Source: Candidatus Moraniibacteriota bacterium (GTDB taxonomy: Bacteria; Patescibacteriota; Minisyncoccia; Moranbacterales; UBA1568). Taken from it: a stretch of 51,399 nt of DNA. Position 1 is the first letter of the stretch. The number at the start of each line of letters is the position of its first letter. The notes below the pieces were generated by a model. That model did no database searches. It saw only the letters and a list, made by a program, of their open reading frames with translations, and had not been told where the DNA came from. This document shows positions 10,518 through 11,412 of this stretch, piece by piece. The stretch spans positions 1 to 51,399 of the forward strand of contig JBBCGM010000006.1 in NCBI GenBank assembly GCA_037201605.1. The letters run 5' to 3'. The position numbers were made by a program, and so were the translations under genes.

Positions 10518-11397
10518 TCAGTTGATCCACCTCTTTAGCTTGTCCTCAGTCGCGTTTCGCCGAGCCGCGAAACGCGCTCGAGAGAGGGCCGCAAGCTCGT
10601 CTCTCCAATTCTCGCTGGTCTGTGTTAGCGGAGTCATCTTCGCGCGGAACGGATCGAGGTTGGTGCCCTCCACCAGCAACTTCACCACCACTTCATATCG
10701 GTCAAGATCGACGAGAGCTCCCGCCGAATACGTTTTTTCAAACTCCTTTGCCACTATCTCTGCGTCTGCGCGACCGATACGAAAGCAAATGAGCGTTCCC
10801 ACGTTGCCAAAGACGGCCTGACGCACCGGCAGAGAGAGTTGATCTATGTACTGGTGCGAGAGAACGAGGCACAGTCGGTACTTGCGGGCTTCGGCCAGTA
10901 TAGAGGTAAAAGCGTCAGTCGAGAAATTCTGGAACTCGTCGATCACCAGATGAAAGTCTCGACGCTTCTCCTCTGGGCGGTTTGCTCGCGCCATGGCGGC
11001 CAACTGGAATTGGGTGACCAGAAGCGAGCCGAGGAGATTTGCTTTCTCGTGGCCTAGGTGACCCTTGGAAAGGTTCGCGATGAAAATACGCCCGTGATCC
11101 ATGATGAAGGGAATACTCACTTTCGCTCTGACTTGGCCAAGGATGTTGCGGATGACAGGGTTGAGGAGGAATTGGCCCAGCTTGTTCTGGATCGGCGCGA
11201 TGGCCTCGCGCAGGTAGCGAGGATCATAGCTGGCATACTCCTCTTCCCAAAAGGCACGAAGGAATGGATCTTTGATCTGGCGGGATAACCTTTGTCCGGT
11301 AGCTCTCGTCCGTGAATAGGCGATTGACGCCAAGAAGCGTTTGGTTCCGGCATTCCAAGAGCGCAGCGACGGCATTGTACAGGAGGTATTCGGTACG
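10518..11397 (-). CDS. C-terminal two-thirds of a VirD4/TraD-like coupling ATPase, split from its N-terminus at 43673-44071
   Basis: TEYLLYNAVAALL, then EAIAPIQNKLGQF, Walker B LVIDEFQNF, ILAEARKYRLCLVLSHQY and FGNVGTLICFRIG. Has no start codon or Walker A of its own. Confidence 0.9.
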
Positions 11398-11412
11398 CTT
11401 CCCCGGCGAGCC
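11386..11412 (+). repeat. Left inversion junction (27-bp imperfect inverted repeat with 44054-44080)
   Basis: GTATTCGGT-ACG-CTTCCCCGGCGAGCC matches the reverse complement of 44054-44080 at 18/27 positions. The ACG core (11395-11397) is exactly where two gene halves meet. Confidence 0.75.

Follow-up and report, generated by a model that had tools for sequence, protein, structure and literature searches.

By what kind of event have two unrelated genes of a mobile element each been cut in two, so that the halves of both now lie crosswise at two distant places? The locus that raises this question is a contig of 51,399 nucleotides (JBBCGM010000006.1, assembly GCA_037201605.1; by "the window" we mean this whole stretch), which is one entire contig (C6) from a bin that is 56% complete and represents an ultra-small bacterium, filed as Candidatus Moraniibacteriota. 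In the window lies one copy of an integrative mobile element frequently found in Verrucomicrobiota, and the two genes encode its DnaG-type primase and a coupling-protein-like ATPase. A single conservative exchange within a shared ACG flipped the intervening DNA and cut both genes in two, and we are highly confident that this inversion is real. As for its mechanism, we favour catalysis by a serine recombinase, to which we assign a probability of roughly 0.4 on the sequence evidence laid out below.

The four gene halves are recognizable by their domains, and the joints can be read to the base. The N-terminal part of the ATPase, a coupling-protein-like P-loop protein with matches to the Pfam families DUF87/HerA, TrwB_AAD_bind and T4SS-DNA_transf, is encoded at 43673..44071 on the plus strand and ends with ...GIWRDSWGPR at 44071. 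Its C-terminal part (10518..11397, minus strand; Pfam TraG-D_C and TrwB_AAD_bind) resumes as (R)TEYLLYNAV..., from 11394 on the minus strand with TEYLLYNAVAALLE..., and continues down to 10518, with a colinear alignment across the joint. The N-terminal part of the primase, which contains the CHC2 zinc finger (Pfam), occupies 44069..44678 on the minus strand; it runs from 44678 down to 44069 and ends at the joint with ...VAYAGR (...IPIHNPEGRIVAYAGR). The primase half with the Toprim domain (11395..11823, plus strand) picks up there with FPGEPDEDKSKYKLPPGF... and is read on the plus strand from 11398 to 11823. The exchange points are therefore found in the primase codons ...AYAGR/FPGEP... and, on the opposite strand, in the ATPase codons ...DSWGPR/xEY....

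Rejoined in silico, the primase halves give one ungapped alignment across the joint with each of two full-length homologues, P0001 (residues 171-311) and P0002 (residues 172-301), which have 339-340 residues and show about 77-82% identity to the rejoined primase in this region. The rejoined ATPase, of which phmmer found 9860 relatives, aligns without a gap across its joint with all seven of the seven homologues tried. Because the halves of both proteins rejoin without a gap, the two joints are the reciprocal ends of an inversion, and not a single base was gained or lost at either of them, as befits a conservative and exactly reciprocal exchange. The original prediction had placed two breakpoints inside unrelated coding sequences; this holds, and the gapless rejoining establishes that the two joints are reciprocal. 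The inversion leaves the primase as well as the ATPase truncated, and a functional product is not available in both orientations.

The two joints resemble each other. The left site (11386-11412, plus strand), in which the bases to the left of the ACG are ATPase antisense and those to the right are the sense strand of the primase, shares 18 of 27 bases in a single ungapped register with the right site (44080-44054, minus strand; 44054..44080 in plus-strand numbering), just as had been predicted for the surroundings of the 3-bp core. The shared ACG lies at 11395-11397 on the left and at 44071-44069 of the minus strand on the right (CGT at 44069-44071 on the plus strand). It is the sole identical run at the exchange point, with a mismatch immediately on either side; the longest identical runs between the two sites comprise 3-4 bases, and outside the 27 bases the match between left and right drops to the level of chance. 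Within the ACG, either AC or CG is identical in both partners and could serve as the central dinucleotide of a serine-recombinase crossover site.

Could the inversion be an artefact of assembly or of the library, the natural molecule being un-inverted? The source, a low-coverage long-read metagenome bin, gives some reason to ask. The contig is full of frameshifts that are changes of homopolymer length, all eight contigs of the bin have been cut or rotated to a start codon, and the composition of this contig is unlike that of the rest of the bin. We nevertheless regard an artefact as very unlikely, since neither a chimeric nor a fold-back read can produce base-exact reciprocal joints 32.7 kb apart (18.7 kb in the opposite direction), and no repeat lies at the joints to mislead an assembler. 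In addition, a 403-base read-derived contig from run X1, a public wood-decay metagenome that is possibly the window's own source, matches the window over 11290-11692, left joint included, with neither a difference nor a gap; the word depth of this run is 2, and each word of the contig was seen at least twice. Assembler error is thereby excluded at the left joint, yet X1 is not an independent sample. No un-inverted joint occurs among the X1 contigs listed, at a depth of about 2, and runs X2 and X5 hold short imperfect pieces from related elements only, which are uninformative on the joints.

The frameshifts themselves are plausibly of technical origin. The primase has three (two in the N-terminal and one in the C-terminal part), the ATPase one and the element's large serine recombinase two, and many other genes are fragmented. 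In the ATPase a single base is affected near 11283-11289, in a run of C, and in the C-terminal part of the primase the shift maps to about 11692, in a G homopolymer; further broken places are found at about 44150 and at 24100-24190. Every frameshift that was inspected is a G or C homopolymer of altered length, and both of the two that fall within the X1-covered stretch coincide with breaks between X1 contigs, whose word depth is about 2. We read them as errors of low-coverage long reads and not as gene decay. The contig is thus a case in which a true structural variant stands beside many false frameshifts.

How far does the likeness of the two sites exceed chance? With a per-base match probability of 0.25-0.30, the binomial expectation for 18 of 27 matches is 6e-6 to 9e-5, and for the 15 of 24 outside the core 1e-4 to 1e-3, but these figures overstate the likeness because the stretch of 27 bases was chosen after looking. 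We therefore calibrated against random pairs of positions in the window that have a 3-mer in common. At least 18 matches in any 27-base stretch holding the core were reached by 7 of 6000 such pairs (P = 0.0012), a best stretch of any size as good as the observed one by 30 of 6000 (P = 0.005), and the best segment through the core scored +1/-1 gave P = 0.0086 (200,000 pairs). When the whole primase gene was compared with the reverse-complemented ATPase gene, 14 of 1,406,250 pairs of 27-base stretches reached at least 18 matches. They lie on 6 diagonals, of which the true pair is one and of which another reaches 19. The likeness is moderately above chance, at about the 1% level, soft, and not the unique best match. 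At a fixed register, the figure of 18 of 27 that had caught the eye in the original prediction is thus indeed above expectation, although only modestly so, with P about 0.001-0.009 depending on the scoring.

Homologous recombination of the RecA type is excluded, because the identical run comprises just 3 bases and no long inverted repeat lies at the joints. A search of the window with exact seeds of at least 11 bases returned 30 inverted pairs, and none of the 25 longest (all of at most 39 bases) is located at the joints; the earlier remark that 3 bp is too short for RecA was therefore justified, there being no inverted repeat at or near the joints. By the same token we reject an inversion mediated by an insertion sequence or by other repeats. 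A weaker form of sequence guidance would be short-homology recombination or replication template switching through base pairing of the alike stretches. In its favour, the joints occupy one of the six places of greatest likeness among 1.4 million pairs of 27-base stretches, with the fixed-register P of 0.001-0.009 given above. However, the identical runs are of 3-4 bases at the longest, the 30 inverted pairs with seeds of at least 11 bases offered better partners and were left unused, which argues that base pairing did not drive the choice of sites, and DNA folding detects no notable hairpin at either site (z -0.8 to +0.1). Template switching, moreover, tends to produce inverted duplications rather than reciprocal flips. 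A Salmonella chemostat study (PMC3411829) describes confirmed inversions with 12-18 bp of junction microhomology, while candidates with 7 and 9 bp were not confirmed. Those spontaneous inversions resemble ours in having no mobile-element repeats at their ends, and differ in that 12-18 bp were shared there and 3 bp here. Because the verified events in that study used at least 12 bp, an event at 3 bases would be unusual for a pairing-driven route and possible for one of breaking and joining. Altogether we consider guidance by base pairing unlikely.

Where, then, does the likeness come from? We took the homologous 27 bases from un-inverted relatives, with 67 ungapped primase sites, 40 ungapped ATPase sites and 33 loci that have both. 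Compared in the register of the window's pair, the two sites of these 33 un-inverted loci agree at 9-18 of 27 bases with a mean of 14.0, about twice the chance value, and 2 of the 33 reach 18. Because un-inverted relatives show 14 of 27 on average, the likeness predates the event. The peptides encoded are AYAGRxPGEP and, on the opposite strand, DSWGPRLEY, whose codon positions one and two are nearly invariant (0.34 and 0.09 bits). The third positions behave differently: their entropy in the site against the flanks is 1.59 versus 1.21 bits for the primase (n=67) and 1.17 versus 1.23 bits for the ATPase (n=40). Because the third codon positions vary freely, the likeness is not a selected DNA signal. 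It would quite probably be a family-wide side effect of coding, in that two conserved peptide motifs, on opposite strands, happen to have similar codon sequences. Breakpoints may thus mimic "sites" wherever conserved peptide motifs read alike on opposite strands, and un-rearranged relatives reveal this quickly.

These comparisons also bear on the idea of a conserved, functional pair of cryptic sites in the two genes, used either as a programmed switch or as a regular secondary attachment site. Such a pair would account for a likeness that is found family-wide, at the same mean of 14 of 27 in 33 relatives. On the other hand, the variability of third codon positions within the sites equals or exceeds that of the flanks, dyad symmetry is missing from both sites, two backbone genes are lost through the inversion, and no relative is rearranged at these two places among the 67 primase and 40 ATPase ungapped sites examined. 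We judge a conserved site pair to be extremely unlikely, and a programmed switch in particular is rejected, as both genes are destroyed and the sites are unconserved. The "cryptic recombination sites" of the original prediction accordingly did not survive: the likeness is family-wide, half-sites are missing, the 3' end of the recombinase gene offers no match, and the rearrangement has no counterpart in the relatives. Nor did the synonymous positions of the primase and ATPase genes, proposed as a check, turn out to be conserved in excess.

If the sites are not dedicated ones, which enzyme could have cut them? The contig encodes a single serine recombinase, which is also the sole site-specific recombinase found there; a tyrosine recombinase was not found in the contig. 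This large serine recombinase (23910..25430, plus strand) has the Resolvase, Recombinase and Zn_ribbon_recom domains and the catalytic-serine motif GIWIRVSTEDQ. About 25 of its residues are out of frame between two compensating single-base indels, and since we read the frameshifts as read errors, the enzyme is probably intact in nature. It had been named beforehand as the nearest candidate for the enzyme behind the inversion. It is indeed the only candidate in the contig; no feature of the sequence ties it to the sites, and its involvement is an inference that the data neither show nor exclude. That the element's own recombinase was the catalyst is possible, and we put it forward tentatively and with some doubt.

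In relatives, the boundary of the element is no more than about 10-20 bases away from the recombinase stop codon, or falls in the last codons of that gene. Five tandem 9-base units (consensus TGTCCTATC) occupy 25434-25478 in the window, starting 4 bases past the stop codon, and could be protein-binding repeats of an attachment region. In one subgroup of recombinases, with 11 loci (L094-L096, L098, L102, L105, L106, L122, L126, L128, L131), one and the same conserved sequence directly follows the recombinase stop. The elements of this subgroup are apparently inserted in one conserved host gene, on the opposite strand, with the crossover in the last codons of the recombinase. An attempt to map the left end of the element from L068 and L073 failed, the break of homology (L073:3756) lying inside an open reading frame (ORF).

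A second inversion in the family is informative. Among 160 loci scanned for backbone genes in separate pieces, L071 is the one clear case. It is 86-96% identical to the un-inverted L073 and has an inversion, likewise reciprocal to the base, whose ends fall in the ATPase and recombinase genes. Its joints lie at L071:1144-1160 and L071:12821-12838, after ...FIANLS of the ATPase and ...LTRA of the recombinase, and the overlap is GC only. The same scan flagged L026 and L035 (in both, ArdC is split at residue 375) as well as L153, where the splits are at apparent domain or gene boundaries. The dinucleotides CG, one of the two available in the window, and GC in L071 are both symmetric. Exact reciprocity, a core of at least 2 bases and the L071 case together fit an off-target serine recombinase, which would also explain why much better pairing partners in the window were ignored.

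How would such an enzyme have produced the observed joints? We propose an off-target enzyme that cuts and rejoins with a 2-base stagger; in the contig, the element's large serine recombinase is the sole enzyme of this kind. At both places the cleavage would have fallen at the CG (or AC) within the ACG, and the half-sites would have been swapped and religated without loss of a base. The scattered likeness around the core perhaps aided two weak protein-DNA complexes to form. The outcome is a dead end for the element rather than a switch, because the primase and the ATPase are destroyed.

Several observations weigh against catalysis by a serine recombinase. Inverted half-sites around AC or CG, examined in both un-inverted sites, match at 3-6 of 20 positions, where the null mean is 5.1 and the 95th percentile 8. 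A third copy of the 18-base consensus with at most 3 mismatches does not occur in the window, for which 0.03 chance hits are expected; both hits obtained are the two sites themselves. Compared with the sites, the 101 bases at the 3' end of the recombinase gene, which stand for one arm region guessed from relatives and not for a mapped attP or attB, match at best at 15 of 27 positions (null mean 15.3, 95th percentile 17). The likeness between the two sites disappears under stricter scoring, with P = 0.19 at a mismatch penalty of -1.5 and P = 1.0 at -2. The L071 sites do not resemble each other in the inverted register (score 2, P = 1.0), and in the direct register have GCCAAnCTC in common, which is weak (P = 0.015, one of two registers tried). 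The read check covers the left joint only, at depth 2 and in a run that is perhaps the window's own source. Finally, large serine recombinases normally pair one attP-type with one attB-type site, and two pseudo-sites as partners should be very rare.

Many of these points speak at the same time for a homology-independent, illegitimate recombination, in which two double-strand breaks or topoisomerase-type cleavages were rejoined crosswise and the likeness of the sites is coincidental. A role of topoisomerases in illegitimate recombination is known. On this account it is no surprise that the sites have none of the testable sequence features typical of recombinase sites, that no examined relative shares the event, that the L071 inversion took place at quite different positions with no likeness in the inverted register, that the likeness of the window's sites does not hold up under other scorings, and that five other places in the primase and ATPase genes are equally or more alike. 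The joints themselves are harder to reconcile with it. In 200,000 trials of random blunt joints, at least 3 shared bases were seen in 5.3% and at least 2 in 16.1%, so that the product for both events is about 0.9%, a low figure that makes a pair of perfect joints with cores of this size somewhat surprising if the joining was random. The flanks are alike at P 0.001-0.009 in a fixed register, and both joints of both events are perfect, although end joining usually trims or fills. We consider illegitimate recombination nearly as likely as catalysis by a serine recombinase. A further step, which we regard as conceivable and rather doubtful, would be that the family's large serine recombinases from time to time use accidental sites with CG or GC cores within their own element, flipping large parts of it and destroying backbone genes: those of the primase and the ATPase in the window, those of the ATPase and the recombinase itself in L071.

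How does the proposed serine-recombinase exchange compare with known systems? Quasi-sites of the Cin invertase are reportedly selected through their central dinucleotide (Iida and Hiestand-Nauer, 1987). The phiC31 integrase, according to two reports, recombines at pseudo-attP sites in mammalian genomes (PMC6332687, PMC2894073). With the phiC31 pseudo-sites and the Cin quasi-sites the window shares a conservative exchange, a very short shared core, scattered likeness and the use of improper sites. It is unlike them in that one partner there is normally authentic, or the quasi-site resembles an authentic site, while here neither partner resembles the recombinase-proximal region or has dyad symmetry, and catalysis is inferred from sequence.

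The large serine integrases (A118, phiC31, Bxb1) recombine attP with attB by a 2-bp crossover that requires identity, and an account of the A118 integrase states that identity of the central 2 bp is needed and that a symmetric core gives both deletion and inversion (PMC3556126). The element resembles them in this core and in having its recombinase gene at one end, with the crossover near the 3' end of that gene in relatives. Their attachment sites, in the same account, span 40-50 bp, consist of symmetry-related half-sites and lie at the element ends (PMC3556126); the sites described here, in contrast, lie inside the primase and ATPase genes and have no symmetry. The small serine invertases (Hin, Gin and Cin, and the tail-fibre switches of E. 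coli EC958) likewise use inverted sites of 26-27 bases with a central dinucleotide (PMC4134206). In that work, however, the sites are 1-2 mismatches apart, follow a conserved consensus and give working genes in both orientations (PMC4134206), whereas here there are 9 mismatches, the synonymous positions are unconserved and both genes are destroyed.

Rearrangements of mobile elements at non-canonical sites are known, and the inversion adds a new example. Should the serine-recombinase reading be true, the two base-perfect inversions, in the window and in L071, would be a natural record of the off-target specificity of serine integrases, and metagenomes would hold natural off-target events of this kind that are relevant to the specificity of enzymes used in genome engineering. 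Off-target flips would then also be a route by which such elements lock themselves into the chromosome.

To which organism does the element belong? The closest relatives of its primase and ATPase are found in Verrucomicrobiota (Limisphaerales and Pedosphaera bins). The tetranucleotide profile of C6 correlates with those of the other seven contigs of the bin at r 0.69-0.81, compared to 0.88-0.99 for those seven among themselves, and the contig is probably mis-binned. In 41 genomes (the bin genome and its 40 nearest relatives) the C-terminal part of the primase matches only chromosomal DnaG, at about 30% identity, which marks the element as foreign to the lineage of the bin. The best primase match in a plasmid database is below 30% identical; there is thus no known plasmid with this backbone. 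Related element contigs also occur in bins labelled Saccharibacteria, Paceibacterota, Klebsiella and Bifidobacteriaceae.

The gene order of the family was derived from 80 related loci, the best-scoring of 145 primase loci, a choice that favours intact genes and includes many loci that stop at contig borders. It begins with a RuvC-like gene on the minus strand, a small ORF, the ATPase, variable cargo, a Replic_Relax-family gene, the primase and an ArdC-like gene, and continues after the latter with further genes, orf18351, orf20439, a second ATPase, orf22857 and the large serine recombinase. Among the 80 loci, Replic_Relax is present in 71 (adjoining the primase), the N-terminal part of the ATPase in 48, its C-terminal part in 49, the ArdC-like gene in 45 and the recombinase in 7. 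Each backbone gene is present once in the window, and flipping 44069..51399 plus 1..11397 (18.7 kb) recovers the family order, given that base 51399 adjoins base 1. If the molecule is circular, the flip of this 18.7-kb arc is the same event as a flip of 11398..44068 (32.7 kb); should the ends of the contig not adjoin each other, two elements in tandem would be needed instead. The ends have no terminal overlap. Read from end into start, the sequence places AAGGA 8 bases ahead of the ATG at base 1, and base 51399 likely continues into base 1. All 8 contigs of the bin open with ATG or GTG at an ORF start, none of which belongs to a replication gene. Because every contig opens in this way, the contigs have been rotated or trimmed, and a false internal join in a linear contig is possible.

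The remaining backbone genes of the window follow the order seen in relatives. Upstream of the ATPase lie the RuvC-like gene (41703-42365, minus strand) and the small ORF (42970-43680, plus strand), as in relatives. The Replic_Relax-family gene (44812..45606, minus strand; assigned by Pfam) is directly upstream of the primase, its neighbour in the 71 loci counted above. The rest of the backbone, identified by Pfam and by comparison with the related loci, extends over 11977..23570 on the plus strand, with the ArdC-like metallopeptidase at 11977-12879, then orf18351 and orf20439, the second ATPase paralogue at 20678-22935 and then orf22857; low-GC cargo, namely a kinase and an FRG-domain gene, is interspersed. 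The ArdC-like ORF of L073 (536 residues) corresponds to two pieces in two other loci, on opposite strands in L026 (L026:12643-17789) and on either side of the primase in L035 (L035:8422-12952). This split may reflect a domain boundary with separate genes, or further rearrangements.

Behind the ATPase, positions 1..10517 on the minus strand contain cargo assigned by Pfam, including orf9030 and a GTPase-associated conflict system (2316-6582, minus strand) that comprises GAP1-N1, DO-GTPase1, DO-GTPase2, GASH and GAAD and is split by frameshifts. The 17 kb between the ATPase and the Replic_Relax gene would be cargo, made up of the GTPase-associated system, FRG and DUF4062 genes and a subtilase. 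This is consistent with the variable ATPase-to-Replic_Relax gap in relatives, which measures 0.3 to about 5.5 kb. A further stretch of about 10 kb (27152-37795, minus strand) holds surface-protein genes with RCC1-repeat, Big_7 and CHB_HEX_C_1 domains in at least 8 ORF fragments; it separates the recombinase end of the element from the RuvC-like one and is either cargo of a circular element or chromosomal flank.

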